Shown here piece after piece: positions 1,001-10,810 of a DNA stretch of 10,810 nucleotides. The notes beneath the pieces were generated by a model. It ran no database searches. It was not told the DNA's origin and saw nothing but the letters and a program-made list of their open reading frames with translations. The translations under genes were made by a program, and so were the position numbers. The stretch lies in the IMG/VR virus record IMGVR_UViG_2917886563_000002. One strand, 5' to 3'. The stretch is from a virus (taxonomy: Duplodnaviria > Heunggongvirae > Uroviricota > Caudoviricetes). Each line of letters opens with the position of its first letter. Position 1 is the stretch's first letter.

Positions 1001-1507
1001 ATTAATAATAGCTTTATAAGCTCTGTGTAGCTCTCTGACGCAAGAAACAGCATTCAGGAAGGGAATCACCTTAGAAAAGGTGTTCTTTGCGTCATAATGT
1101 GTTTTATGAAGGATTCAGAGGTGTTTCATAACAGGAATGTATAGAGGATACTTTAATTAATTAAAAATAAGGGGTCTAAATGCTTCTCTAACAGCATTAA
1201 GCAGGGTAGGGAATGGAAACGCATTGTCTACATATAATAAGCTCACTACAGAGCTTTACAGAGCGTTTTTATAAAGTGACTCTCTATCTTATATCTACCA
1301 TTACCTTTTCATATACCTAACAAATACAAAATAAGCCCCTTAAATAAGCCTCTGGCGAGCTAAACAGCCATTACATAAGGGAATGTATTGCTTTTATCAA
1401 AATCTCGTTATAACGCGTTTTAGACAATAATGAAGAATGGCACTACACAGAAGAGCACGAGTTGCTCGTAAGTGCATGAAAAAGATCGATTTTTTTCGGA
1501 AGGGGTA

Positions 1508-1536
1508 TTGACAAACGTCTCTTTCTGTGCAATAAT
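1508..1536 (+). promoter_or_regulatory. Sigma70-type promoter candidate (TTGACA, 17-bp spacer, TGcAATAAT extended -10)
   Basis: ttgaca at 1508-1513; aataat at 1531-1536 preceded by tg at 1528-1529; AT-rich upstream; imperfect palindrome GCACGAGttgCTCGTaaGTGC at 1455-1475. Confidence 0.55.
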
Positions 1537-1590
1537 AGGAATTAGAGGGGACAGGAATAGATTCTTATCCTCTAAATAATTAAACCAATG

Positions 1591-1634
1591 CACCGCACTT
1601 TGAAGCCCAAGGCTTGCAAGGTGTTTTTTCTTTT
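1591..1634 (+). terminator. GC-rich stem-loop followed by T6CT4 run in the 5' leader of the first cargo gene (intrinsic terminator or attenuator candidate)
   Basis: CACCGCA...TGCaaGGTG pairing at 1591-1623 with inner AAGCC/GGCTT hairpin, then ttttttctttt at 1624-1634; lies between the 1508-1536 promoter and the SD at 1648-1654. Confidence 0.45.
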
Positions 1635-1661
1635 AACCAAATAGAATAAGGAGGCTAATTA

Positions 1662-1838
1662 ATGAAATATTTTACTCCACAGGATGTAGTAGAAGCCTGG
1701 AAACGTGGTGAGATCAACCGCTTTAAAGTAAGGATGTATAGAAACACCGCTCGCCGTTGTGGTTATCCAGAGCGTGAAAAATGTTTTGACGATGCACTGA
1801 AAATTATTGATGAACTGCGTAAAGCTGAGAAAGAATAA
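1662..1838 (+). CDS. Small basic hypothetical protein (58 aa), absent from the supplied ORF track
   Basis: ATG at 1662 preceded by AAGGAGG (1648-1654); hand translation MKYFTPQDVVEAWKRGEINRFKVRMYRNTARRCGYPEREKCFDDALKIIDELRKAEKE, stop TAA at 1836-1838. Confidence 0.6.
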   Translation: MKYFTPQDVVEAWKRGEINRFKVRMYRNTARRCGYPEREKCFDDALKIIDELRKAEKE

Positions 1839-1860
1839 TAGACAAGAGAAGGAGAAAACT

Positions 1861-2028
1861 ATGAGCGAAACTAAGAAACCAATTCCGCGCACTTACCTAC
1901 ACGTTGACCCTGAAATCTTCAAGGTTTTATTTGCTGAAGCCAAGAAAAGGCAAATTATGGTCAGTGATTTGATGTTAGAAATCATTACTGAAGCAGCAGA
2001 GAACATCAAACAAAAAAAGGGTAAGTGA
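1861..2028 (+). CDS. Small DNA-binding protein, ribbon-helix-helix-like (55 aa)
   Basis: ATG at 1861 with GAAGGAGA SD 5 nt upstream (the track's 1807 start lacks an SD). MSETKKPIPRTYLHVDPEIFKVLFAEAKKRQIMVSDLMLEIITEAAENIKQKKGK shows a polar/hydrophobic alternating strand (RTYLHV) followed by two helices, the RHH pattern. Confidence 0.6.
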   Translation: MSETKKPIPRTYLHVDPEIFKVLFAEAKKRQIMVSDLMLEIITEAAENIKQKKGK

Positions 2029-2079
2029 TCCTCATTCACTTTAGTAGCGCATTAAGCGTGATTTATAAGGAGATTTTTA

Positions 2080-2769
2080 ATGATTAATCAACTAACTTTT
2101 ACAAAACACTATGACACGTTTGATAATGTATCAAAGATTTATTCTGATAAATTCCCTCAAGGAAAAGATTTAGATCTATTACATATTGTGCTTTATTTTC
2201 GATTCCTTAGTTATCAGGAAAACAACCTTAATTGTTATGAAAGTCACGAAACATTAGCTAAGATTTTTAAGTCTTCAGCGTCAACAATTAAACGTAAGAT
2301 AAACGATCTTAAAGAGATGGGATTATTAGAAACATCCCCACATCCTGATCCGTATATTTCATCTTTGATTTACAATGCTCTCCCTCTCACAGATGCACAT
2401 ATTACTCCCCCAGGAGAATCATCACTCTCTGATCTTTCTGAGGCAGAAGAAGCACAGGAACAACCTAAAGGCCATAAACAGCCTTCTTTTGATGCTCTTG
2501 ATGATTGGGATACGCCTTTACCCTGGGAGATGGAAGAAACACCTGTTTCATCAAGTGAAAAGGTAGCTAATGATAATGAGGAGGATGTGTTAAAGAATTT
2601 TGCCTCTCTTATCATCCAGGAGAAACACACAAGAACAGGAGGAGCATCATTTATTGAGTTTGCAAATTCACTAGCTTGTAGATACGGGCTAAAACGACCA
2701 AATGGTATTGAGGCATATTTTGCTAAGAAACATCCCAAAGTATATGAAGACTTTGATATTCCATTTTAA
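2080..2769 (+). CDS. Hypothetical protein with N-terminal winged-HTH-like domain, acidic Pro-rich linker and C-terminal domain (229 aa)
   Basis: SD AAGGAG 7 nt upstream; N-terminus ...LHIVLYFRFLSYQENNLNCYESHETLAKIFKSSASTIKRKINDLKEMGLLE has the look of a wHTH of phage/plasmid replication or regulatory proteins. Confidence 0.8.
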   Translation: MINQLTFTKHYDTFDNVSKIYSDKFPQGKDLDLLHIVLYFRFLSYQENNLNCYESHETLAKIFKSSASTIKRKINDLKEMGLLETSPHPDPYISSLIYNALPLTDAHITPPGESSLSDLSEAEEAQEQPKGHKQPSFDALDDWDTPLPWEMEETPVSSSEKVANDNEEDVLKNFASLIIQEKHTRTGGASFIEFANSLACRYGLKRPNGIEAYFAKKHPKVYEDFDIPF

Positions 2770-2780
2770 TAAGGAGGGTT

Positions 2781-3059
2781 ATGATTCAATATTTAGTAAA
2801 AAATCAAGTAGACAGAATTCAGTGTAATGACACAGGAAAACGCATCTACGAGACACTTGCTTACCTCTATAAAGGAAAGCCAACACCGCTAAAATATAGC
2901 GATGTGTTACATCGAGCAGGTTGCTCTGAAGCTGGTTTAAAATTCTGGCTGAAACAGCTATCAGATTTCGGTGTTATAGAGATTAAAGAATTATCTTTCT
3001 CTACATTCAATCTCAAAAGATTAGATAAAGAAATAGACTTCATCTATTCCACTCTCTAA
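2781..3059 (+). CDS. Small winged-HTH-like protein (92 aa), paralogous in pattern to the N-domain of the 2080-2769 product
   Basis: SD AAGGAGGG immediately upstream; ...RIYETLAYLYKGKPTPLKYSDVLHRAGCSEAGLKFWLKQLSDFGVIEI. Confidence 0.7.
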   Translation: MIQYLVKNQVDRIQCNDTGKRIYETLAYLYKGKPTPLKYSDVLHRAGCSEAGLKFWLKQLSDFGVIEIKELSFSTFNLKRLDKEIDFIYSTL

Positions 3060-3100
3060 AATCTCTCTATGTAATTAAAATATAAAAGGAAAACATTATT

Positions 3101-3247
3101 ATGATAGTAGCTATGTATTGGTTATTGTTCTTTCTCACGTTAGAAGCATATTTCGGGGTGTTTTCCTTTAAAAGAAAAGGAAAAGTAAATGGCAAAAAGA
3201 AAAAAACAACGTTGTTAAGAAGATCGGTGATTCAGCTTCTCTTCTAA
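3101..3247 (+). CDS. Small predicted membrane peptide (48 aa): hydrophobic N-terminus, Lys/Arg-rich C-terminus; possibly the 5' part of a longer frameshifted gene
   Basis: ATG at 3101 with AAGGA about 10 nt upstream; hand translation MIVAMYWLLFFLTLEAYFGVFSFKRKGKVNGKKKKTTLLRRSVIQLLF; not in the ORF track. Confidence 0.4.
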   Translation: MIVAMYWLLFFLTLEAYFGVFSFKRKGKVNGKKKKTTLLRRSVIQLLF

Positions 3248-3360
3248 GTAAACCTAAATCTATTCTAAGACGCAAAGACTTTAAAGAGCTAGTTACGCTC
3301 ACCAAGCAAAATAGCGCCCCTGGCGAATGGAAAACAGAGATCATAGAACATTCTCCCTCT

Positions 3361-3600
3361 GTGCCTTGTGGAGATGAATTTAACGCCTTACAAGAAATCT
3401 TATCTTCAACACCTGGCGTATTCTGGAAACCCAGGAAAAGAAAAGAGTATATCGTTGATAGCTCTGATTTACGCAAATACCAGATTTTAGGATTTGAAGA
3501 TTATAATCACTACGTTGGTTATCTCGCTACCAATGGCCTAAATAATTTAGTTCCAGAATTCCAGATTTTAGATAATGCTGATCACTATGGAGACTTTTAA
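3361..3600 (+). CDS. Hypothetical protein fragment; this frame is open from 3172 with no ATG and is probably the downstream part of a gene starting at 3101
   Basis: Track ORF starts at GTG 3361 with no SD; the same frame is stop-free back to 3172 and overlaps the 3101-3247 ORF across an A-run at 3194-3206. Confidence 0.35.
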   Translation: MPCGDEFNALQEILSSTPGVFWKPRKRKEYIVDSSDLRKYQILGFEDYNHYVGYLATNGLNNLVPEFQILDNADHYGDF

Positions 3601-3601
3601 T

Positions 3602-3940
3602 ATGAACAAAAACACGTATGACACAATTTACTCACTAATTAATTATTATGAGGATGATTACCTCCTGCCTTTAAACCGCGCTGAACTTGAAGCATACAAA
3701 GAAAACACGCCAGCGGCACTAAATGAGGCGTTTAAACACTGGGATTTAGCTGTGAATGCCTTTGAGCACCTCTCTAAGCGTGTAGAGATGCTCTGTAAGC
3801 GCGAAAACGCATATCTGACAGCCGATCAGATATGGGAGCTATCAAACTGGATAGAAGATATTGAATCTGATGTTCGCTATGTAGGGGATGGCCTTGTTGA
3901 ACTCGCACAACGCTTAGGCGCTGCTATCACAGAAGAATAA
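3602..3940 (+). CDS. Acidic hypothetical protein (112 aa from ATG 3602; the track's 3575 start is less likely)
   Basis: GGAG at 3590-3593 sits 8 nt before ATG 3602; product MNKNTYDTIYSLINYYEDDYLLPLNRAELEAYKENTPAALNEAFKHWDLAVNAFEHLSK... is strongly net acidic by hand count (about 22 D/E against 10 K/R). Confidence 0.65.
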   Translation: MNKNTYDTIYSLINYYEDDYLLPLNRAELEAYKENTPAALNEAFKHWDLAVNAFEHLSKRVEMLCKRENAYLTADQIWELSNWIEDIESDVRYVGDGLVELAQRLGAAITEE

Positions 3941-3969
3941 AAAAAGCAACAAAAAAGTTGTAAAATATC

Positions 3970-3998
3970 TTGACATTTCATATATTGTATGTTAATAT
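3970..3998 (+). promoter_or_regulatory. Sigma70-type promoter candidate (TTGACA, 17-bp spacer, TGtTAATAT)
   Basis: ttgaca at 3970-3975; taatat at 3993-3998 preceded by tg at 3990-3991. Confidence 0.5.
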
Positions 3999-4132
3999 AA
4001 TTATATAGGGGTGATTATTTTTCCTTTATTGGTTCGATATTAAAAATTCTTCTTGTCGTTAAAGGGGAGTAAAATCTCCGCTCCCCGCTTCTCCTCCTTA
4101 AGTAATACTGTGTCATACCTCTTTTTTCCTTT

Positions 4133-4162
4133 GTTATGCATACATCTTGGAGTGTGCATAAC
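4133..4162. repeat. Inverted repeat GTTATGCA ... TGCATAAC (operator-like), with a third GTTATGCA copy at 4211-4218
   Basis: gttatgca at 4133-4140, tgcataac at 4155-4162, gttatgca at 4211-4218; adjacent palindrome CAACTTaaAAGTTG at 4217-4230. Confidence 0.6.
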
Positions 4163-4176
4163 ATAGGGTAATTACA

Positions 4177-4207
4177 AAGGCGGCTTTAAATGCTGCCTTT
4201 TATTTTG
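4177..4207 (+). terminator. Stem-loop followed by T-rich run (intrinsic terminator or attenuator candidate)
   Basis: AAGGCGGC (4177-4184) pairs with GCTGCCTT (4192-4199) with one G-T wobble, loop tttaaat, then ttattttg. Confidence 0.45.
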
Positions 4208-4268
4208 CCCGTTATGCAACTTAAAAGTTGTATTTCTTACTTTAAACAAGGTAACAAGGTTTATATAA

Positions 4269-4481
4269 ATGTTGTTCTTAAATGATAAAGAGCAAATCAT
4301 CAAGTATAAAGATGAAATGCTGCGAATTACTCCACAAATTACCGAAATGGTAGCTAAATACGCTGGGTGTTCTGTCGAGGAAGTAGAAAGATGTGTTGAA
4401 AAATATTTTTCTCCTTCTTCTCCGTCTACACCTTCCCTTAATGAATTAATCAAATTAAAAGCTAAGGAGATTACTAAATGA
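4269..4481 (+). CDS. Small acidic hypothetical protein (70 aa)
   Basis: Track ORF; weak SD (AAGG about 10 nt upstream); its stop overlaps the next start (ATGA at 4478-4481), suggesting translational coupling. Confidence 0.55.
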   Translation: MLFLNDKEQIIKYKDEMLRITPQITEMVAKYAGCSVEEVERCVEKYFSPSSPSTPSLNELIKLKAKEITK

Positions 4482-4840
4482 TTATTGATTTAGACACTCT
4501 TTTTCCAGTTCGAAAGACTTTCACAGATATTGTAAGTTACTGTACTGATCCGTTTGCTTCTGTAGAAAGCAAGGTTTTTGCTTCTCTTCCTGCTGATGTT
4601 GAATGCGGAGACTTGATCACCAGCACGGGCGCTAAATATGAATCAGGAGATGATATCTATGTTGTTATGAGTGAATTTGTAACGGCAGGAGAAAACAAGC
4701 CTGTAGATGTGCTACGTAGCAATGCTGGCCTTGTGTGCATTAAAGCTGATGCGCTGAATGCTGTAAGTGAAGCAGCAAAAACAGCATTAATTAAAAAAGG
4801 CTTCCAGCTTGAAGGCTTTAACACGGTTTTCACTTCTTAA
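4478..4840 (+). CDS. Hypothetical protein (120 aa)
   Basis: SD AAGGAGA at 4463-4469; overlapping stop-start with the upstream gene; no family recognised. Confidence 0.7.
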   Translation: MIIDLDTLFPVRKTFTDIVSYCTDPFASVESKVFASLPADVECGDLITSTGAKYESGDDIYVVMSEFVTAGENKPVDVLRSNAGLVCIKADALNAVSEAAKTALIKKGFQLEGFNTVFTS

Positions 4841-4858
4841 TAAAAGGAATAATAATAA

Positions 4859-5887
4859 ATGATTCTAGGTAATGATTACGTTGATTTAGCTCCGCTTTTC
4901 CAGACACACAGCACGCGTAACTTTCTGCTCTCTACCCTCGACTTCACTGATCCGGTGGGCGTTAGTTCTCATAAAGTAGCTGTTTCCCAGCTTGTCGAAA
5001 GCAACGAATCTCTCTTTAACAAAGAGACAAGCCGTTTTAGTTCTGAACACAATGTTACTAAGCGAGAACAAGGTAAAGAATGGCTGATTGAAATCCCGTA
5101 TTTTCTTCGTGAGGATGTGATCCGTCCTTCTGATGTTCAAGGCAAGCGTAAGCCTGGCACTGATTTTCAGGAAACACTTACTGATATCTATGCTGACTAT
5201 GTTGCTAAACACCACGTAGCGTATCAGCGTACAAAAGAGAGCGTGTTGGCGGCTTCTTTGTTCTCTGGCAAAACTTACACGCCTAAAACTGACGATGTGT
5301 TAATTGAGTGGGGCAAGCTGTTTAACGTATCAGCTATGAAAGCCACTGTTAACGCCTCCAGCACTGACACCACGAAGATTTTTAAAGAATTTGATCAGAT
5401 TGCTACTGACATTATCGAAAAAGCACAAAGCCAGGCGGCTGCTGTAGAGCGTATTGTTGTTTTCTGTAAGCCGGAAGCCTTCTCTGCAATTCGATTCTCT
5501 GCTGGTATGGCAAACGCATTCCAGTATGTAAGCCCACTGGAAGAGGGGAACGTTGTGTATCAGCGTCGTGACCTGCTACCAGGAGTGACAGCGTTCACTA
5601 TTCCAGGAACTAACATTGATGTTGTTAAACTGGTAGATCCGCTACACCTGGCACATATGACCGCAGACGCTGTAGCTGTGCCTAAATTCGCTAAAGGCTC
5701 TAACGTATATCAGAACATTTACGGGGCTGCTTCCAGCACTTTTGAACTGATTAATGCCGCTCCTGCTGAGGTGTATAGCTATAGCTATGAATCTTCTCGT
5801 GGTGATGCTGTTAACGTTGTTACAGAGAATAGCCAGATGGTGGTAAACCACGGCGTTGGCTTCTCCGTTCAAATCACTGTTAAATAA
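4859..5887 (+). CDS. Hypothetical protein (342 aa); candidate structural (capsid-like) protein, unverified
   Basis: SD AAGGA upstream; long ORF with protein-like composition and no signal peptide; followed by the strongest terminator in the window; paired with a 120-aa upstream gene. Confidence 0.8.
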   Translation: MILGNDYVDLAPLFQTHSTRNFLLSTLDFTDPVGVSSHKVAVSQLVESNESLFNKETSRFSSEHNVTKREQGKEWLIEIPYFLREDVIRPSDVQGKRKPGTDFQETLTDIYADYVAKHHVAYQRTKESVLAASLFSGKTYTPKTDDVLIEWGKLFNVSAMKATVNASSTDTTKIFKEFDQIATDIIEKAQSQAAAVERIVVFCKPEAFSAIRFSAGMANAFQYVSPLEEGNVVYQRRDLLPGVTAFTIPGTNIDVVKLVDPLHLAHMTADAVAVPKFAKGSNVYQNIYGAASSTFELINAAPAEVYSYSYESSRGDAVNVVTENSQMVVNHGVGFSVQITVK

Positions 5888-5905
5888 TATTTTAACGTGT
5901 AATAG

Positions 5906-5945
5906 AGGCGTGGCGTGTATTCACGCTTCGCCTTTTTTTATTTAT
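5906..5945 (+). terminator. Rho-independent terminator
   Basis: AGGCGTGGCGTG (5906-5917), loop tatt, CACGCTTCGCCT (5922-5933), then ttttttatttatttttt. Confidence 0.75.
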
Positions 5946-5973
5946 TTTTTAAGTTTTGAGAGGTGATTAAAAT

Positions 5974-6177
5974 ATGGAAGTGATTTTGAAATCAAAAAAT
6001 GGTGTACACGTACATTTAGATGCTAATGATTCTAGAGGCTTGTTAAATCTGAAATATCTATGTTCTCTTTTAGATGTTCCCTATGAAGGCGTAAAAGCCC
6101 GTATGTTCAGATTAAACGAGAGTATTGATCAGGCTCTACACCATTTCTTAAGCAAAGAAGGTGGTAAAAATGATTAA
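5974..6177 (+). CDS. Small hypothetical protein (67 aa)
   Basis: SD GAGGTGA 7 nt upstream of ATG 5974; stop 6 nt before the SD of the next gene. Confidence 0.6.
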   Translation: MEVILKSKNGVHVHLDANDSRGLLNLKYLCSLLDVPYEGVKARMFRLNESIDQALHHFLSKEGGKND

Positions 6178-6191
6178 TAAGGGGATTTTAA

Positions 6192-8024
6192 ATGTTAGAA
6201 ATTAACACTTCCAAGATTAAAAATACAGTAACATTTACTGTAGATAAAGACAGCTTGAAAAAAGCGAAAGACTCTATTACAGGCTTAAAGGAATTCGCAG
6301 AGAACATCAAGCCAGCTAAATTAAGATTTGATAGTGTCACTAAAGGCTATAAGAAAGCACAAAGCGAAGTAGACAAGATTGCTCAACAGAAAGCTAAAAC
6401 AGAAAAGCAAAATCAAAGAGCACAAGCTGCCGCAGCAAGAGCACAGGCAAGGCAACAGCAACAAATAGCAGCACGTAAGGAGAAGGCAAACTTAAAACTG
6501 TTAGACGTTGGATCAAGCATTAGTGCATTGCACCGCCTCTCTGTAGCGGAACAATACAAAGCTATTGCACAGGCTAGAGAGATAGCGAAACAATATGAGC
6601 AAGGGGCTATCTCGCTTGCACGTATGAATAGCCAGATGAAACGCTTACAACAGCAACAACGTAAGATTAATGGCAATAGAAAAACTCAATTAGCCCCCGT
6701 TAAGGGAGGAGGATCAGGGAATGCCGCCACTATGGGCGCTCTGTTATTTGGAGGCGCTACGGCTGCTGCTGGCGTGATGGCTGTTAGTAAAACCTCTGAA
6801 TTTATGGCTAACAGCTTTGCGAATGCTGAAACACAAGGCGAGCTAATTCAACGTGCAAGGCTTGGCGGTGTAGACGTTAACCAGATGTATAATATTACAG
6901 AATGGGCCTATAGAAACGGGATCGACTCTATGATGGGTGATCAAGGGGCTAGGAAATACCTGGATCAGATGAAAGATGTTAGGGAACGTGCCGCAAAATC
7001 CTATAGTGAAGCTGAATTAGTGAAAGATAAGAAAACAGGAAAATCTGAATGGAAAGGCGGTGATAACGCTATTAATGAACTTCTAAACATCGGTGTTATT
7101 AACAAAAGCGACCTTAAAAAATTTGCTGATAATCCAGCCGGATTAATTTCTAAGGCTGTTAATGGAATGATGAAAAAAGGGTTTTCAGACTCCCAAATTG
7201 GACAACGTTTAGAAGACCTGGGCGATGATTTGATGCTTACGTCAAAATATTGGCAACGTTCCGTTAAAGATGTACAAGAAAGCATTAACCAGCAAAAAGC
7301 CGCCGGACAATGGCTAACAGAAACACAGCAAGACTCTATTGTTAAATTCAGAGAACTAAACAGACAGCTTTCACAGCTTTCTGATGCAAGACAAGTAGCA
7401 TTCGTAGACGGCTTTATGAAATCTCTTGATCCAAAAGTAACGGAAGAGTTTATGAAAAACCTTTCTAATCTCACTCCGTATTTTACGAAGCTGGGAGAAG
7501 CTACAGGAAGTCTCTTTGAAGCCATTATGAAGATTGTAAACTGGTTTAATCGTAATGATGATAAGACAGATGCTATTCAGAAAAATATGGGTGATGCACC
7601 GCCACTATCTAACGATGGAATGAAACAGAATCTTTCTAACCTCGTTCCTGACCAATATAAAGGCGCTGGCACTGCAACAACTACACCTGATAATAGTCGT
7701 TCTCTCTTTAACACGATTAAGGGATTGCTTTTTGATGATAATTCTTCTGTGTCAGATGTAAAAATGTCAGTCAATGAAGCACCGATAACCAATCTCAAAC
7801 AGGGTGCTTTAAATAATCTTGCAATGACAACTCCGGCTTATAATTTATCTCCTGTGTTTAATCTGAATCCAACGTTTGAAGTGGTAACAGAGGTTCCGCT
7901 TACTATTAATTCTGACACGTCCAGATTAAGTGATTATGTGGATTTTACAGCGAGAGCAAGTCGGGATATCTTCTTGAAATCATTAACATTAACCAGCTTA
8001 TCAGGACAATCTAACGGCGGGTAA
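6192..8024 (+). CDS. Large hypothetical protein (610 aa): Gln/Ala-rich coiled-coil-like N-region, Gly/Ala hydrophobic segment, Asn/Ser/Thr-rich C-terminus; tape-measure-like or scaffold-like, unverified
   Basis: SD AAGGGGA upstream; segments ...KTEKQNQRAQAAAARAQARQQQQIAARKEKANLK... and ...GGGSGNAATMGALLFGGATAAAGVMAVS...; no signal peptide. Confidence 0.8.
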   Translation: MLEINTSKIKNTVTFTVDKDSLKKAKDSITGLKEFAENIKPAKLRFDSVTKGYKKAQSEVDKIAQQKAKTEKQNQRAQAAAARAQARQQQQIAARKEKANLKLLDVGSSISALHRLSVAEQYKAIAQAREIAKQYEQGAISLARMNSQMKRLQQQQRKINGNRKTQLAPVKGGGSGNAATMGALLFGGATAAAGVMAVSKTSEFMANSFANAETQGELIQRARLGGVDVNQMYNITEWAYRNGIDSMMGDQGARKYLDQMKDVRERAAKSYSEAELVKDKKTGKSEWKGGDNAINELLNIGVINKSDLKKFADNPAGLISKAVNGMMKKGFSDSQIGQRLEDLGDDLMLTSKYWQRSVKDVQESINQQKAAGQWLTETQQDSIVKFRELNRQLSQLSDARQVAFVDGFMKSLDPKVTEEFMKNLSNLTPYFTKLGEATGSLFEAIMKIVNWFNRNDDKTDAIQKNMGDAPPLSNDGMKQNLSNLVPDQYKGAGTATTTPDNSRSLFNTIKGLLFDDNSSVSDVKMSVNEAPITNLKQGALNNLAMTTPAYNLSPVFNLNPTFEVVTEVPLTINSDTSRLSDYVDFTARASRDIFLKSLTLTSLSGQSNGG

Positions 8025-8057
8025 TTCCCGCCATAACATTACAAGGAAATTATTATT

Positions 8058-8768
8058 ATGGCGACGGCGGGAATTTTAACCATACGTGCAGCAAATACTC
8101 CAGAACAACACGTTCAGGCTGTTTACAAAGCAGAACAAGATATAAACTCTACAAAAAACGAAAATAGCAAAGCTAATAAAACAAAAGGAGAAAATGGATT
8201 TGCTATTGTCACCAGTGGGCTGGCATCTTCTGTAAGTGACGTTTATGAAAATTATATGGCGTTATCCTTTGACAGTGTTGACGATGTGAACGTGAGACGT
8301 TCGGCAGATGTCACAAGCTATCCTGTAGAAAATGGAGCTAATGTATCGGATCACGTTCAAGTTAAGAATAATAAGTTTGCTCTTAAAGGGCGTATCTCTG
8401 AAACACCGATTAAAAGCGATCCTGGCTTGTTAAAGAGTGCAGGGGTGAACGGGAACAGAAGATCATTAGCTATCGACTACCTGAATCAGATTATGGACAG
8501 TAGACAGCCTTTTCTTCTTGTTACAGAAAATAAAACTTTTGAGAACGTTGTTTTAACAGGCATCGAATACACAGAAGAGGCAAGCGAATCTCTGGTATTT
8601 GATTTGGAATTTGAGCAAATCAGATTAGTTTCTTATGGCACTGTAAACACTGTAGCTATCAAAACACAGCCATCTAAGAACATCGGGGCTAATATGAAAA
8701 AACGTGTTAACACTGAAAAAACAAGTGAAGGTGAAGACACTATTACTCCTGCCTTTAAGCAGGAATAG
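8058..8768 (+). CDS. Hypothetical protein (236 aa); possible virion or tail-associated protein, unverified
   Basis: SD AAGGA 10 nt upstream; immediately follows the 610-aa gene; a stem-loop follows the stop. Confidence 0.75.
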   Translation: MATAGILTIRAANTPEQHVQAVYKAEQDINSTKNENSKANKTKGENGFAIVTSGLASSVSDVYENYMALSFDSVDDVNVRRSADVTSYPVENGANVSDHVQVKNNKFALKGRISETPIKSDPGLLKSAGVNGNRRSLAIDYLNQIMDSRQPFLLVTENKTFENVVLTGIEYTEEASESLVFDLEFEQIRLVSYGTVNTVAIKTQPSKNIGANMKKRVNTEKTSEGEDTITPAFKQE

Positions 8769-8809
8769 CCGTAAACGCCTCTAAAACGCTCTGTAACGAT
8801 GTAATTATA

Positions 8810-8842
8810 AAAGAGGCTACCAATCTATGTTGAAGCCTCTTT
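8810..8842. terminator. Stem-loop between convergent genes (bidirectional terminator candidate)
   Basis: AAAGAGGCT (8810-8818) and AGCCTCTTT (8834-8842), 15-nt loop; T/A-rich flanks on both strands; lies between the 8058-8768 gene and the minus-strand recombinase. Confidence 0.4.
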
Positions 8843-8849
8843 ATTGCGT

Positions 8850-9848
8850 CTATGGCGTTGTTTTACGCCTTAAATTTGATTTTTTATTGATTGATAAGCC
8901 TTTCTCTATTTCAGGGTAGCGTAGAAGCTCAATATATTTTTTAAGCTCTACTGGAGAAGCTGCATTCTTGCTATATGTGCGGAATGTCTCTGTATTGCCG
9001 CGTGTATGGCCCAGGAGAAGGGCGATCCTGTCTTCTGGAATTTGATTTCGATCAAGAAGCTGTGCTACTCCGTGTCTCAGAGAATGAAACACCTTCCTTT
9101 CTGTTCCCTTTTCCCCTAAAGCCTTTCGTTTAGCTCTTGTAAATCTCTGCGTGTGCCACGTGGAACGTTTACCATCAGCACGCTCTGTAATGCTGGCGTG
9201 ATAGAACAAAAAGCCATTGTGAGGCTTTTCACGAAGAGATAACACCAACGGAGTGATAAGGCTATGTACAGGCACAAGACGTGCCGCAGCTTTCGTTTTT
9301 CCCTGTGTGATTTCAAAACACAGCACACCTTCGATCTCTTTCACATCGTCTATTGTGAGACTTGCTATCTCATTGATCCGCATACCTGTATATAAACCGA
9401 TAAGACACAAAGCCGTCATTTCTTTGTTTTCTGCTGAATTACCGGAAAATACTTGCAACACCTGCAATAGCTCTTTGTTAGAAAATGCCTCATAGCTCTC
9501 TCTACTTTGTGCCACATCAAGCCTATGCCCTCGCCAGGGGGAGAGCGCCCTTTCTGGCGCATCGTGGTAACGTGATGAAGCTAACTCCCATAGCTGGGCC
9601 ATTGGGCTGATATAATTTGCAATTGATTGTTGTGAAAGGGTTTTTTGCATGCGTTCTATCCAGCCTGTAACAGTGGTGCGGCTCACATCTTGCAATGCAA
9701 TATCAGGCTTTTTACGGTAGGAGAGAAACATCTCTACCGCTTTTCTTGCCTTAGCTAAAGTGGCTGGCTTCTTCTTCGTGCTGTTAATTGTCAGGTAGAT
9801 TTCAAGAATTTTAAGCAATGACGGACACGAAGACGCTGTATCTTGCAT
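8850..9848 (-). CDS. Tyrosine site-specific recombinase (integrase), 332 aa
   Basis: Catalytic-domain signature in order: Arg in ...LYTGMRINEIASL..., H-x-x-R in ...FHSLRHGVAQLL..., ...LLGHTRG..., and Tyr in ...TFRTYSK...; N-terminal region ...LEIYLTINSTKKKPATLAKARKAVEMFLSY... resembles a core-binding domain. Confidence 0.9.
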   Translation of the reverse strand: MQDTASSCPSLLKILEIYLTINSTKKKPATLAKARKAVEMFLSYRKKPDIALQDVSRTTVTGWIERMQKTLSQQSIANYISPMAQLWELASSRYHDAPERALSPWRGHRLDVAQSRESYEAFSNKELLQVLQVFSGNSAENKEMTALCLIGLYTGMRINEIASLTIDDVKEIEGVLCFEITQGKTKAAARLVPVHSLITPLVLSLREKPHNGFLFYHASITERADGKRSTWHTQRFTRAKRKALGEKGTERKVFHSLRHGVAQLLDRNQIPEDRIALLLGHTRGNTETFRTYSKNAASPVELKKYIELLRYPEIEKGLSINKKSNLRRKTTP

Positions 9849-9925
9849 TCTGGTAGCTGTTTTGGCGTATTTAGCCTTACTTCGTAACAGTTCCAGCGTG
9901 TTCTCTATTGTGCTGTTTACAGGAG

Positions 9926-10810
9926 TGATCTTGACCCGCTATCTCCGGACCGCTTTTGTATCTTAAGTTAACGATGCCCGCTGCCGCCGGTATTCCCTCG
10001 GAGAGTAATATCCCAGCGCGCTGTGCGGGTGGTTTTCATTGTAATGCGTGAACGCTGCTGCAAGGTTTTGCAGGGCTGTTCTCACATCCGGTTTTGGCAT
10101 GAACGCGATATAGTCTTCTTTCATCGTCTTCACGAACCGTTCGGCCATGCCATTACTCTGCGGACTGCTCACCGCTGTTGTACAGGGTTCAAGATTCAGC
10201 TCTCTGGCGAACCTCCGCGTTTCATGCGCAGTATACGCTGAACCGTTATCCGTCAACCACTGCACTGGTGTGTCCGGCAACCTGTCGCCGAAGCGCTTTT
10301 CCACCGACCTCAGCATCACATCCTGTACGGTCGAACTGTCGTAGCCTCCCGTGCTCGCTGCCCAGTCTATGGCCTCTCTGTCGCAGCAGTCCAGCGCGAA
10401 CGTCACCCGCAGTTTTTCACCGTTGTCGCAGCCGAACTCGAAGCCGTCTGAACACCAGCGCATATTGCTTTCTGCCACCGCGATTTTTCCCTTGTGTTCA
10501 CGCTTCGGTCGCTCTGGTTTGTCATGCAACAACAACAGGTTATGCTCGCTCATTATCCTGTAAAGTCGTTTGGCGTTCACCGGTGGCTCTCCCTCAGTGC
10601 GACGTTGCTTGCGCAGGATGCCCCACACGCGTCGATAACCATAACTCGGCATATCGCTGATGATATCGAGGATATCCGTCAGTATTTCAGCGTCTGCTTC
10701 GTCATTACGCCGGTTACAGCGCCTGTCCTGCCAGTCGGCAGAACGGTTAACTCGCAGTGACAGCTGCGCACGCGACACGCCCATGGTGCGGCTGACCAGG
10801 GCTATTCCCC
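9926..10810 (-). mobile_element. IS3-family insertion sequence, IS2-like, partial (OrfA side runs off the right window edge)
   Basis: Minus-strand end reads ...GGCGGCAGCGGGCATCGTTAACTTAAGATACAAAAGCGGTCCGGAGATAGCGGGTCAAGATCA, the same pattern as the IS2 right end as recalled; G+C rises at 9926; encodes an IS2 OrfB-like transposase. Confidence 0.88.
9963..10784 (-). CDS. IS3-family (IS2 group) transposase OrfB, DDE catalytic domain
   Basis: ...[13 protein letters not shown]...RWCSDGFEF...[13 protein letters not shown]...[11 protein letters not shown]...[11 protein letters not shown]...[12 protein letters not shown]; D, D and E motif residues present; frame continues upstream past 10784 toward the window edge. 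Confidence 0.92.

Follow-up and report, generated by a model that had tools for sequence, protein, structure and literature searches.

In lambdoid phages, late control relies on the PR′ promoter, the 6S RNA and the tR′ terminator, which is read through by Q, and in Stx phages the terminated product of the late leader doubles as the sRNA StxS. The immunity of satellite P4 is due to the CI RNA, which comes from the PLE leader, and P1 and P7 have the c4 RNA. The put RNAs of HK022, which form two stem-loops in ~70 nt, act on RNA polymerase without the help of a protein. Lastly, a bioRxiv preprint (10.1101/2022.04.08.487710) describes SviR, an sRNA of the Vibrio cholerae satellite PLE.

We analyzed a window of 10,810 nt, which is an IS-flanked, partly decayed copy of a phage-satellite-like island of Escherichia coli. 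This island, carried by about 307-308 of 5,426 complete E. coli genomes (~6%), has genes for a major capsid protein and for tape-measure-like and Dit-like proteins, all kin of those of Stephanstirmvirinae/rV5-like phages. Ahead of its morphogenesis operon is a gap (positions 3941 to 4268) devoid of any annotation in 39 of 40 sampled RefSeq records and without phage or plasmid matches, even at E = 10. A sequence-only reading had proposed that this gap produces a structured RNA or an operator-controlled leader, and all the motifs that it listed were found where it placed them or no more than 1 nt away (Table 1). Taken together, they exceed what chance would produce.

By analogy, the gap is best read as working like lambda PR′-6S-tR′ without being a member of that system. 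As in the lambdoid arrangement, a sigma-70 promoter is found directly upstream of the morphogenesis genes, the predicted default product is an ~200-nt non-coding RNA ended by an intrinsic terminator, and further terminators are present inside the operon, so that the late proteins would depend on read-through. In contrast, no Q family member was found among the upstream proteins of the island by Pfam, PHROG and PDB sequence scans. Where a lambdoid leader would have its Q-binding element and sigma-dependent pause signal, both promoters show, in most lineages, a conserved A(U)AGGG start. Unlike 6S, the RNA is highly structured, with counterparts of 360-930 nt containing conserved helices in related loci, a palindromic candidate operator is attached to the promoter, and the element that hosts the system is a small satellite-like island rather than a lambdoid phage. 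We estimate at about 0.5 the probability that the gap is a late-operon control region in which a terminated, structured leader RNA gates the late genes, with a promoter-linked operator.

Table 1. Features of the gap and of related control sites, numbered from the first nucleotide of the window
Feature	Position	Strand	Sequence or basis
Early-operon promoter P1	1508-1536	+	TTGACA, 17 nt, TGcAATAAT, then UUAGAGGGG; same design as late promoter
Terminator-like hairpin in P1 leader	1596-1634	+	Hairpin 1596-1623, U-tract 1624-1634; first early gene at 1662
O1, 17-bp palindromic element	3946-3962		GCAACAAAAAAGTTGTA; direct-repeat and palindrome searches
Late-operon promoter	3970-3998	+	TTGACA (3970-3975), 17-nt spacer, TAATAT (3993-3998); near-consensus sigma-70
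Predicted non-coding leader RNA, ~203 nt	4005-4207	+	Inferred start A4005/A4007, to terminator U-tract
Conserved transcript start	4005-4011	+	AUAGGGG; A(U)AGGG after -10 in most lineages
U-rich CCUUU motif, copy 1	4018-4030	+	TTTTTCCTTTATT; direct repeat
Hairpin 1	4064-4086	+	GGGGAGU, loop, GCUCCCC; 7 bp in MFE and centroid folds
CU-rich tract	4088-4100	+	CTTCTCCTCCTTA containing CCUCCUUA; CTCCTCC at 4091-4097
U-rich CCUUU motif, copy 2	4123-4135	+	TTTTTCCTTTGTT; 5′ base of hairpin 2
Hairpin 2	4128-4167	+	Arms 4128-4143 and 4152-4167, with GTTATGCA (4133-4140) and TGCATAAC (4155-4162)
Intrinsic terminator	4176-4207	+	AAAGGCGGC, 7-nt loop, GCUGCCUUU, UAUUUUG; 9-bp stem 4176-4200
O2 and post-terminator hairpin	4211-4233	+	Third GTTATGCA (4211-4218) overlaps palindrome GCAACTTAAAAGTTGTA (4216-4232)
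Tandem repeat	4245-4260	+	AACAAGGT AACAAGGT; direct repeat, before ATG at 4269
First morphogenesis-operon gene, 70 aa	4269-4481	+	Followed by 120-aa gene and major capsid gene (4859-5887)
Second intrinsic terminator	5905-5939	+	Directly after capsid gene, ahead of tape-measure-like and Dit-like genes

The promoter candidate of the sequence-only reading was borne out, with an extended -10 (TG at 3990-3991) and a score of 10/12. Promoter-like matches as a class were not enriched (21 observed versus 20.3 expected). Between positions 1400 and 9000, a perfect TTGACA is combined with 17-nt spacing and an extended -10 only at 1508 and 3970, both at operon heads. Among 34 distinct E. coli copies of the late promoter, the -35 hexamer is invariant, the -10 hexamer has one variant, and the remaining substitutions fall in the spacer. 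Loci of Buttiauxella, Kluyvera, Citrobacter and Klebsiella type have, at the same position, a TTGAC(A/T) -35 followed after 16-18 nt by a -10-like hexamer. The promoter scan of the window revealed no promoter-like site between the terminator and the first late gene, so that transcription of the operon would be coupled to that of the RNA. TATAGGG was also considered as part of a T7-like promoter; this reading was rejected, as the upstream specificity region is mismatched, and to our knowledge the candidate helpers carry no T7-like polymerase.

The expected palindrome was found at 4217-4230, and it has a previously unlisted twin at 3947-3960. Two copies of this CAAC-N6-GTTG core were reached in 3 of 200 shuffles, for an expectation of 0.12. 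The corresponding 17-mers, O1 and O2, are 88% identical, and O1 ends 7 bp before the -35 hexamer, its core ending 9 bp before it. In 84 distinct loci, an xAAC-N6-GTTx element keeps a register to the promoter, being located either 24 nt before the start of the -35 hexamer or in the spacer at +8 to +11. These registers are seen in types A, B and E of the five sequence types described below. In those types the palindrome is also present 34-64 nt before the first gene, and in type B the stems of that copy show compensatory changes. Both promoter and palindrome motifs were absent from a related phage segment (5.2 kb of phage muut). Judging from its fixed registers to the promoter hexamers across lineages, the CAAC-N6-GTTG palindrome appears to be an element with operator-like behavior.

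The earlier proposal that the repeats are operators may apply to this palindrome but does not suit GTTATGCA. The triplication of the latter, including the inverted repeat, was confirmed, with copies at 4133-4140 (plus strand), 4155-4162 (minus strand) and 4211-4218 (plus strand) and nowhere else in the 10.8 kb, and it exceeds chance expectation (0.49; three copies reached in 1 of 200 shuffles). However, two of the copies make up the two sides of a 12-bp RNA hairpin, and the third supplies the 5′ side of the post-terminator hairpin. Because its copies are arms of transcribed hairpins, with wobble-compatible polymorphisms, GTTATGCA is not a good operator candidate.

These repeats could nevertheless be taken to indicate a purely DNA-level element, in which no role would fall to the RNA and they would serve as protein-binding sites, whether operators, DnaA boxes or iterons of an origin, or a packaging site for the small, HTH-like protein of 70 aa. 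The two 17-bp palindromes bracket the cassette, and their promoter-linked registers recur across lineages. A replication-initiator-like protein is encoded upstream of the gap, and a 92-aa protein yielded weak, sub-threshold winged-helix, MerR-type and PefI-like matches in profile and PDB sequence searches. In addition, TTATGCACA, on the minus strand at 4153-4161, matches the DnaA-box consensus perfectly. However, that perfect box occurs only in the minority variant represented by the window, most copies having TTATGCATA, while one-mismatch boxes are found at background rate and the other types have none. With no conserved cluster of TTATNCACA, the hypothesis of a replication origin was rejected. 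GTTATGCA is not conserved at the equivalent position outside type A, the orientation of promoter and terminator fits an RNA, and the strand-asymmetric, G.U-rich compensatory variation that extends over hundreds of nucleotides in the relatives is inexplicable by duplex sites. We therefore regard an exclusively DNA-level function as improbable. Reading the palindromes as operators does not conflict with the terminated-leader explanation, which incorporates it.

The structured RNA of about 200 nt that had been predicted is in agreement with the folding data. The 203-nt plus-strand RNA has a predicted free energy of -58 kcal/mol (z = -4.8, with none of 200 shuffles as good), against z = -3.1 for the minus strand, and the leader of the majority variant, L002, reaches z = -5.8. 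At its 5′ end, the A(U)AGGG start has variants in types C and E and is also present at P1. It forms a 5′-terminal stem with a downstream CCCU in type B and pairs with CUCCUCCU in the predicted fold of L002. Hairpin 1, reported earlier as a GGGGAG/CTCCCC hairpin (4064-4069 with 4081-4086), is intact in 32 distinct E. coli copies (pi = 0), its sole change being a 1-nt deletion in the loop. In hairpin 2, the only substitution (G4154 to A) converts a U.G pair to U-A opposite U4141. The U-rich CCUUU motif also recurs in the type B and type C RNAs.

The stem-loop with a T-run is also confirmed and has the form of a canonical intrinsic terminator. It ranks first among the listed terminator-like sites between 1400 and 9000, is present in all folds and has its sole substitution in the loop. 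It ends 61 nt before the ATG of the first late gene. In this interval, positions 4214-4220 pair with 4227-4233 to form the post-terminator hairpin, in which the G4216-to-A polymorphism replaces G.U with A-U, and the second AAGG of the tandem repeat (4256-4259) is likely the Shine-Dalgarno sequence of the first late gene.

The CCTCC tract noted previously as resembling an anti-Shine-Dalgarno sequence is present, but it is probably not a free one. The tract, which is unpaired in the centroid fold of the window, pairs with the 5′ AGGGG in the MFE fold of L002, and it plausibly represents the 3′ strand of a stem closed by that conserved 5′ sequence. Its (CCU)n stretch varies in length among E. coli copies, and its segment is the most variable part of the RNA (pi = 0.10). 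Sequestration of a Shine-Dalgarno by an anti-Shine-Dalgarno sequence was predicted in some folds of type B and of the window, inconsistently, and was not retained. The ORF list and the comparison of E. coli copies revealed no conserved ORF in the leader. The start of a small ORF at GTG 4011 is destroyed in several copies, the ATG at 4136 lies inside hairpin 2 and has no ribosome-binding site, and a 49-aa minus-strand ORF (4015-4164) has no support. A minus-strand AAGGAGG was also discarded as a ribosome-binding site, as no start codon follows it. ARAGORN detected no tRNA or tmRNA in the region.

Nucleotide diversity among E. coli copies is 0.0255 in the gap, whereas third codon positions in the genes on either side range from 0.046 to 0.17, and substitutions are as rare as at the first and second codon positions of those genes, in line with purifying selection. 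The two hairpins, the terminator and the post-terminator segment have diversities of 0-0.016, and substitutions in paired elements either are in loops or keep the pairing by changing G.U to A-U. These data support the view that the gap is a real, selected control region in which a promoter is followed by a structured, ~200-nt non-coding transcript and by a terminator ahead of the next operon. Since type A copies differ too little among themselves for covariation to be seen, the structure of this RNA itself is supported by thermodynamics and two wobble-compatible changes. The window harbors a minority variant: most E. coli copies have 4 additional nt after 4115 and 17 after 4175. Since it is degraded, with these two deletions in the RNA, a frameshifted 136-aa gene, a truncated integrase and IS3 flanks, this copy may no longer function.

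We found ~120 related loci in E. coli, Citrobacter, Klebsiella-type hosts, Enterobacter, Kluyvera, Buttiauxella and Scandinavium that keep the promoter, a non-coding stretch, the terminator and the first late gene, with promoter-to-first-gene distances of 299-993 nt. A homologue of the 70-aa protein was found in 113 loci, where its gene is 3′ of the RNA cassette, although the homologue set is shallow. The loci fall into five mutually unalignable sequence types (A to E), type A being that of the window. Homology between RNA types was not retained: BLAST gave a single 65-nt match, between D and E, and A-B alignments scored z = 1.7-4.4. As the RNA bodies cannot be aligned, their equivalence is positional rather than demonstrated homology. 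The RNAs diverge far faster than the flanking proteins.

Covariation in homologous regions, the check suggested earlier, was observed in the best-sampled type. There, 51 of 131 consensus pairs show compensatory changes, and a 16-bp domain that includes 11 covarying pairs reaches 96.9% pairing, its score being matched by none of 500 shuffles. Structure is strand specific in the relatives, with 90.7% of cells pairing on the plus strand versus 78.2% when mirrored, and fold z-scores in other types are -6.0, -9.9 and -11.4. In all five types the RNA ends in a terminator-type hairpin, even though some type B terminators have poor U-tracts, and CU-rich tracts recur in all types. Thus, the equivalent RNAs of related lineages are genuinely structured, plus-strand molecules. 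As to the motifs themselves, the promoter and the terminator are conserved in relatives, as is the palindrome in types A, B and E, whereas GTTATGCA is not conserved outside type A. Searches with the Rfam 15 covariance models, with E values up to 1, assigned neither the window region nor representatives of the five types to a described RNA family. Identity with the Pas sRNAs of E. coli prophages was likewise rejected, because these are lambdoid and found in Stx phages and our region has no phage match.

The size of the structured RNAs in the relatives exceeds the apparent need of a leader, and it bears on the possibility that the cassette is a stand-alone sRNA gene. The terminated RNA of ~200 nt would then be the functional product, acting in trans on host, satellite or helper-phage targets by base-pairing of CCUCCUUA or UUCCUUU tracts with Shine-Dalgarno regions or by protein titration, and its position before the operon would be incidental or would allow leaky read-through. 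Like Hfq-type sRNAs, it is preceded by a strong promoter of its own and ends in a canonical, U-tailed terminator. CU-rich tracts are found in all types, and CCUCCUUA, which is identical to the 3′ end of 16S rRNA, has its complement in UAAGGAGG (1649-1656), the strong site of the first early gene. The rapid divergence of the RNAs relative to the flanking proteins would fit an arms race. There is a satellite-encoded precedent in the Vibrio PLE (bioRxiv 10.1101/2022.04.08.487710). Similarly to SviR, the island RNA is a satellite-encoded non-coding RNA that could act on satellite and helper transcripts, but host, helper and sequence are unrelated. In addition, the island RNA is transcriptionally fused to the late operon, and we found no target complementarity for it in the phage searches. 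Past the terminator the operon has no promoter-like site, and variation in the RNA is greatest in the CU tract, which can also pair with the 5′ AGGGG. The early codons of the 70-aa gene, the single candidate target examined, are polymorphic, with no compensating change. A search of 50,697 phage records detected no coliphage with extended complementarity, although short seeds may escape such a search. The compensatory changes of the post-terminator segment in type B also argue against a stand-alone sRNA, since they indicate a functional read-through RNA. Altogether, we retain a trans-acting sRNA as a tentative possibility.

P4-type RNA immunity had been evoked for this region as well. According to that hypothesis, a small RNA processed from the leader, like the P4 or P1 c4 RNAs, would pair with repeated sites in its own transcript, so that in the resting state the genes downstream would be subject to premature termination or blocked in translation. 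The island shares with P4 CI and P1/P7 c4 a constitutive-looking promoter followed by a non-coding leader and a terminator before the genes and, with P4, its satellite nature. The leader also has short repeats (UUUUUCCUUU twice, GUUAUGCA three times and AACAAGGU twice), the 3′ arm of hairpin 2 could pair instead with the third GUUAUGCA copy beyond the terminator, and two repeats in the opening codons of the 70-aa gene show 77-78% complementarity to a 5′ motif. However, this sole candidate complementarity to downstream sites is not conserved: its second target repeat is variable (AAA to CGC or CGA), and the leader shows no change that would compensate. Such long-range pairings are absent from the predicted folds, the motif set is not conserved in other types, and no lineage type resembles an Rfam model. 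Furthermore, the island RNA is much larger and precedes structural rather than replication genes. Immunity of this kind is therefore very unlikely here.

The organization of the early operon is more consistent with a leader that gates the downstream genes. The promoter, 5′ stem and terminator design of this operon is shared in all four types checked (A to D), with altered stems in the terminator arrangement of the P1 leader. Together with the terminator that follows the capsid gene, this indicates that termination control looks like a general principle of the element. Because both operons have the promoter-leader-terminator arrangement and no promoter-like site separates the late terminator from the first gene, the proposal of a hairpin acting as an attenuator is the option that fits best. 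The layout is also reminiscent of HK022 put, with a structured RNA immediately downstream of the promoter and upstream of terminators and with early and late promoters of shared design. This likeness is one of layout, and the lineage types have no common alignable fold.

In our model, the sigma-70 promoter would start transcription at about 4005, and the first ~200 nt would form a stable, non-coding leader with several hairpins, namely, the 5′ AGGGG stem, hairpin 1 and hairpin 2. This leader would end at the intrinsic terminator, ~60 nt before the first morphogenesis gene. By default, most transcripts would stop there, yielding a discrete ~200-nt RNA, and the 70-aa, 120-aa and capsid proteins would be made only by polymerases that pass this terminator, the tape-measure-like and Dit-like genes being situated beyond the second one. 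As both promoter activity and read-through would be needed for the late genes, their output would be set at two levels. At the promoter, a DNA-binding protein may act on the CAAC-N6-GTTG palindrome beside the -35 hexamer, with a second copy after the terminator, and beyond it conditional read-through would occur by antitermination or attenuation, most plausibly triggered by infection with a helper phage. We infer the existence of a factor that regulates this read-through. Pfam, PHROG and PDB sequence searches recognized no antiterminator-like protein in the island and were uninformative for the 70-, 112- and 136-aa proteins, and no mention of the island's proteins was found in the literature searched.

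A simple leader does not obviously require the 500-950 nt of conserved structure found in relatives, which argues for a function of the RNA itself. It is conceivable, albeit doubtful, that this RNA is the first representative of a class, so far undescribed, of large and structured non-coding RNAs of 200-950 nt with a direct role in helper hijacking. It might sense a helper factor to switch on morphogenesis, interfere with helper expression, or participate in particle assembly or packaging. If so, each lineage would have its own rapidly diverging RNA type, and the carriers would be uncharacterized capsid- and tail-bearing satellites of large virulent myoviruses.

Relatives of the island are spread across Enterobacterales. 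If the gating model holds, it would explain how such a satellite avoids expressing its capsid and tail genes before the arrival of a helper. Transcription of both operons would be poised but would end at the terminators, which represents a directly testable switch. The large, covariation-supported RNAs of the relatives, which belong to no known family and are located directly upstream of capsid genes, are targets for structural and functional studies of the conflict between satellites and their helpers.

The window is an island carried on the Escherichia coli chromosome. Of 5,426 complete genomes, 308 match the stretch spanning the 328-bp gap between the 112-aa acidic gene and the late genes with 90-99% identity, on the chromosome in every case; when searched alone, the gap was found in 307. 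Among complete E. coli genomes, ~6% carry the island, which also has relatives in many Enterobacterales. No feature was annotated under the gap in 39 of 40 sampled records. On the plus strand, the intact copy encodes small proteins, a replication-initiator-like HTH protein, 92-aa, 136-aa and 112-aa acidic proteins, then, after the gap, 70-aa and 120-aa proteins, the major capsid protein (Pfam Phage_cap_E), 67-aa and 610-aa proteins and a Dit-like 'baseplate' protein; the last gene, for a tyrosine integrase, is read from the minus strand. One segment of the window shares 97-99.6% identity with the Stephanstirmvirinae phages muut and inny, and another ~77% with rV5-like phages over their tape-measure and tail-tube-initiator genes; the capsid protein is just 22-26% identical to phage capsid proteins. 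As parts of the island are close to large virulent myoviruses, and as it has its own capsid gene and no portal or terminase annotated in the intact copy, it looks like a phage satellite. It encodes its own major capsid, 610-aa tape-measure-like and Dit-like proteins, and as a satellite it looks undescribed.

The window copy is decayed. Its IS3 fragments at both ends and its truncated integrase (332 aa vs ~425 expected, N-terminus lost) indicate that it is probably immobile. In the 136-aa gene, which other copies conserve, an A-run soon after the ATG is one A too long and shifts the frame, the remaining frame being intact; directly past this site lies a perfect 12-bp palindrome, AACAACGTTGTT. 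The window gap is shorter than in most copies, with 4 nt and 17 nt missing. In some E. coli copies (L007 and L047), an IS3 element has displaced the late promoter as far as its -10, along with the genes upstream, which leaves the RNA body and the operon promoterless.

Features of the island and its relatives (window coordinates unless a locus is named)
Feature	Position	Locus in relatives
IS3-family transposase fragments, truncated integrase	159-470, 8850-9848, 9963-10784	
Unannotated AT-rich stretch	800-1500	L001:8184-10188
Satellite-like element	1400-9850	L001:7644-18645 (intact copy)
Early promoter	1508-1536	
Early promoter and leader region	1508-1661	
Early-leader hairpin and U-run	1596-1634	
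Match to muut and inny	1849-2418	
Frameshift region, 136-aa gene (ATG at 3190)	3190-3216	
Palindrome AACAACGTTGTT	3205-3216	
Stretch matched in complete genomes	3500-4900	
Gap	3941-4268	
Upstream palindromic 17-mer (CAAC-N6-GTTG at 3947-3960)	3946-3962	
Late promoter	3970-3998	
Hairpin 1	4064-4086	
CU tract	4088-4100	
Hairpin 2	4128-4167	
Terminator (4176-4200 plus U-tract)	4176-4207	
Post-terminator hairpin	within 4211-4233	
Downstream palindromic 17-mer	4216-4232	
Post-capsid terminator	5905-5939	
Match to rV5-like phages	6193-8384	
Apical-loop palindrome AUUCGAAU, type B		L010:3787-3794 and equivalents
Palindromes AGGAATGTTCCT and AGGAATATTCCT		L017:3859-3887
IS3 replacement		L007:4733-5946

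All motifs listed for the gap by the sequence-only reading are present where it had placed them. The late promoter combines TTGACA, 17-nt spacing, TAATAT and an extended -10 TG. Promoter-like matches as a class are not enriched (21 vs 20.3 expected), and the combination of a perfect -35, 17-nt spacing and an extended -10 occurs at only two sites, the late promoter and the early promoter, each at the head of an operon. The motif GTTATGCA has three copies, all inside 86 nt (0.49 expected). CAAC-N6-GTTG has two (0.12 expected), one of which, just upstream of the -35, had been missed; the two palindromic 17-mers are 88% identical to each other. The terminator ranks first among the terminator-like sites listed.

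The early promoter is of the same near-consensus, extended -10 design. Its leader comprises a 5' stem, UUAGAGGGG...CCUCUAA, then a hairpin with a U-run, then the first early gene, an arrangement kept with altered stems in types A, B, C and D of the gap (described below). Another strong intrinsic terminator separates the capsid gene, which it directly follows, from the tape-measure-like and Dit-like genes, and no promoter-like site comes after it. Terminators therefore lie directly after both strong promoters and inside the late operon. The sequence upstream of the early promoter is AT-rich and unannotated over a long distance (~2 kb in intact copies; in the window the IS truncates it) and has short repeats resembling CTTATCT; an origin, a site related to attachment or a further RNA could lie there.

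Searching with the capsid protein showed the family to occur in Citrobacter, Klebsiella, Enterobacter, Cronobacter, Serratia and further genera, and ~120 related loci were fetched. Wherever a locus extends far enough upstream, the equivalent place is occupied by a long non-coding gap. These gaps fall into five types, none joined by BLAST except for one 65-nt D-E match.

Sequence types of the gap
Type	Representative and hosts	Loci	Promoter to first gene (nt)
A	window; E. coli	42	299-323
B	L010; Buttiauxella, Kluyvera, Citrobacter, Enterobacter, Scandinavium	34	545-725
C	L017; Klebsiella-type	16	419-474
D	L008	13	976-993
E	L015	6	860

All five share a near-TTGACA -35, a good and often extended -10, an A(U)AGGG-like start and CU-rich tracts, together with an intrinsic-terminator hairpin followed by a short hairpin and the ribosome-binding site of the 70-aa homologue. 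As the likeness of types A and B is confined to the promoter and a few motifs (alignment z = 1.7-4.4), the equivalence of the types is positional.

Type B was diverse enough for a covariation test. Its 51-column domain (GCGCGG...CCGCGC) has 16 pairs, 11 with compensatory double changes, and 96.9% of cells are paired; none of 500 shuffles matched the covariation score, and sliding the partners by one column made the signal collapse. Around a conserved UCGAAUC loop, the 5' hairpin has three versions of its stem (AAGU/ACUU, ACGU/ACGU and AUGU/ACAU). Through the perfect palindrome AUUCGAAU in its apical loop, the RNA could dimerise by loop-loop contacts. RNAalifold on 22 type B sequences gave 131 pairs, with compensatory changes in 51. 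Folding energy was -164 kcal/mol on the plus strand vs -131 on the minus strand; the plus-strand structure kept 90.7% pairing on its own strand and 78.2% once mirrored, and the reverse test dropped just 3 points. Single-sequence fold z-scores were -11.4 (B), -6.0 (C) and -9.9 (D), and the plus strand was more stable in 9 of 10 representatives. None of the five types matched an Rfam family, a tRNA or a tmRNA. The type B covariation, the strand bias and the fold z-scores together indicate that in the relatives this locus encodes plus-strand RNAs that are genuinely structured. A gap acting purely as a DNA-level element would leave the strand-specific covariation unexplained.

The window's predicted 200-nt RNA is the shortest form among the related RNAs. 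The 203-nt plus-strand sequence folds with z = -4.8 (-5.8 for the majority E. coli variant) and the minus strand with z = -3.1; hairpins 1 and 2 and the terminator are stable in both MFE and centroid folds. E. coli copies are too similar to each other for real covariation. Among 32 distinct copies, nucleotide diversity of the gap was 0.0255, a level comparable to that of codon positions 1 and 2 in the flanking genes (0.014-0.048; position 3, 0.046-0.17). Hairpin 1 had zero substitutions, and hairpin 2, the terminator and the post-terminator segment had diversities of 0.009-0.016. Variation lies mainly in the CU tract and the next segment, mostly as indels, including (CCU)n length change; copies differ there by whole CCT units (CTCCTCCTT vs CTCCTCCTCCTT), which fits slippage. 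Across 34 distinct sequences, the changes in paired elements were G4154 to A in hairpin 2 (U.G to U-A), G4216 to A in the post-terminator hairpin (G.U to A-U), one T-to-C change in the terminator loop and a one-base deletion in the hairpin 1 loop. A plus-strand RNA would tolerate changes of this pattern.

Palindrome positions were compared in 84 distinct loci. An xAAC-N6-GTTx palindrome, A/T-rich at its centre, occupies one of two positions relative to the promoter, either exactly 24 nt ahead of where the -35 starts (in type A and some of type B) or within the promoter spacer at +8 to +11 (remaining B and E). Such a fixed register to the hexamers, one of the two being the site between -35 and -10 classically used by repressors, points to a DNA operator. 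Small HTH-type proteins are candidate binders; the 92-aa protein had only weak winged-helix, MerR and PefI-like matches. The proposal that the GTTATGCA repeats are operators was not borne out, hairpin arms being the better explanation. A second palindrome copy lies past the terminator, 34-64 nt ahead of the first late gene, and forms the tip of a hairpin; because its stems carry compensatory changes in type B, it may also act in the read-through RNA. Klebsiella-type loci are without AAC-N6-GTT palindromes and have two adjoining 12-bp palindromes instead, AGGAATGTTCCT and AGGAATATTCCT, ~50-80 nt ahead of the promoter, which may reflect another operator specificity.

On the best-supported reading, the gap is a three-part control region for the late operon: a strong promoter linked to an operator, a structured leader RNA that would normally be stopped at the intrinsic terminator, and structural genes that would be expressed only by read-through, most plausibly triggered by helper infection. 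We infer the transcription, termination efficiency and regulation of the late operon from these features. The leader or terminated RNA of the sequence-only reading is thereby retained, and the P4-type RNA immunity that it evoked found no support, in view of the missing Rfam match and of the lack of conserved leader-target complementarity. That the RNA acts in trans is a serious possibility, its size and conservation in the relatives going beyond the needs of a passive leader, although no target complementarity was found among the candidates tested. Late control in phage lambda, through PR', the 6S RNA and tR', follows the same logic of a terminated leader and read-through. The lambda system has Q, whereas protein family searches found no Q-like gene in the island, so the gap is not a member of that system. 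Identity with the prophage Pas sRNAs of E. coli was rejected, as those are lambdoid and unrelated. Literature searches on satellites of these phage groups and on the island's protein accessions turned up no description of the element or its RNA. In mechanism, the control region would be a variant on a known regulatory type; both the RNA set and the satellite family that carries it appear undescribed.
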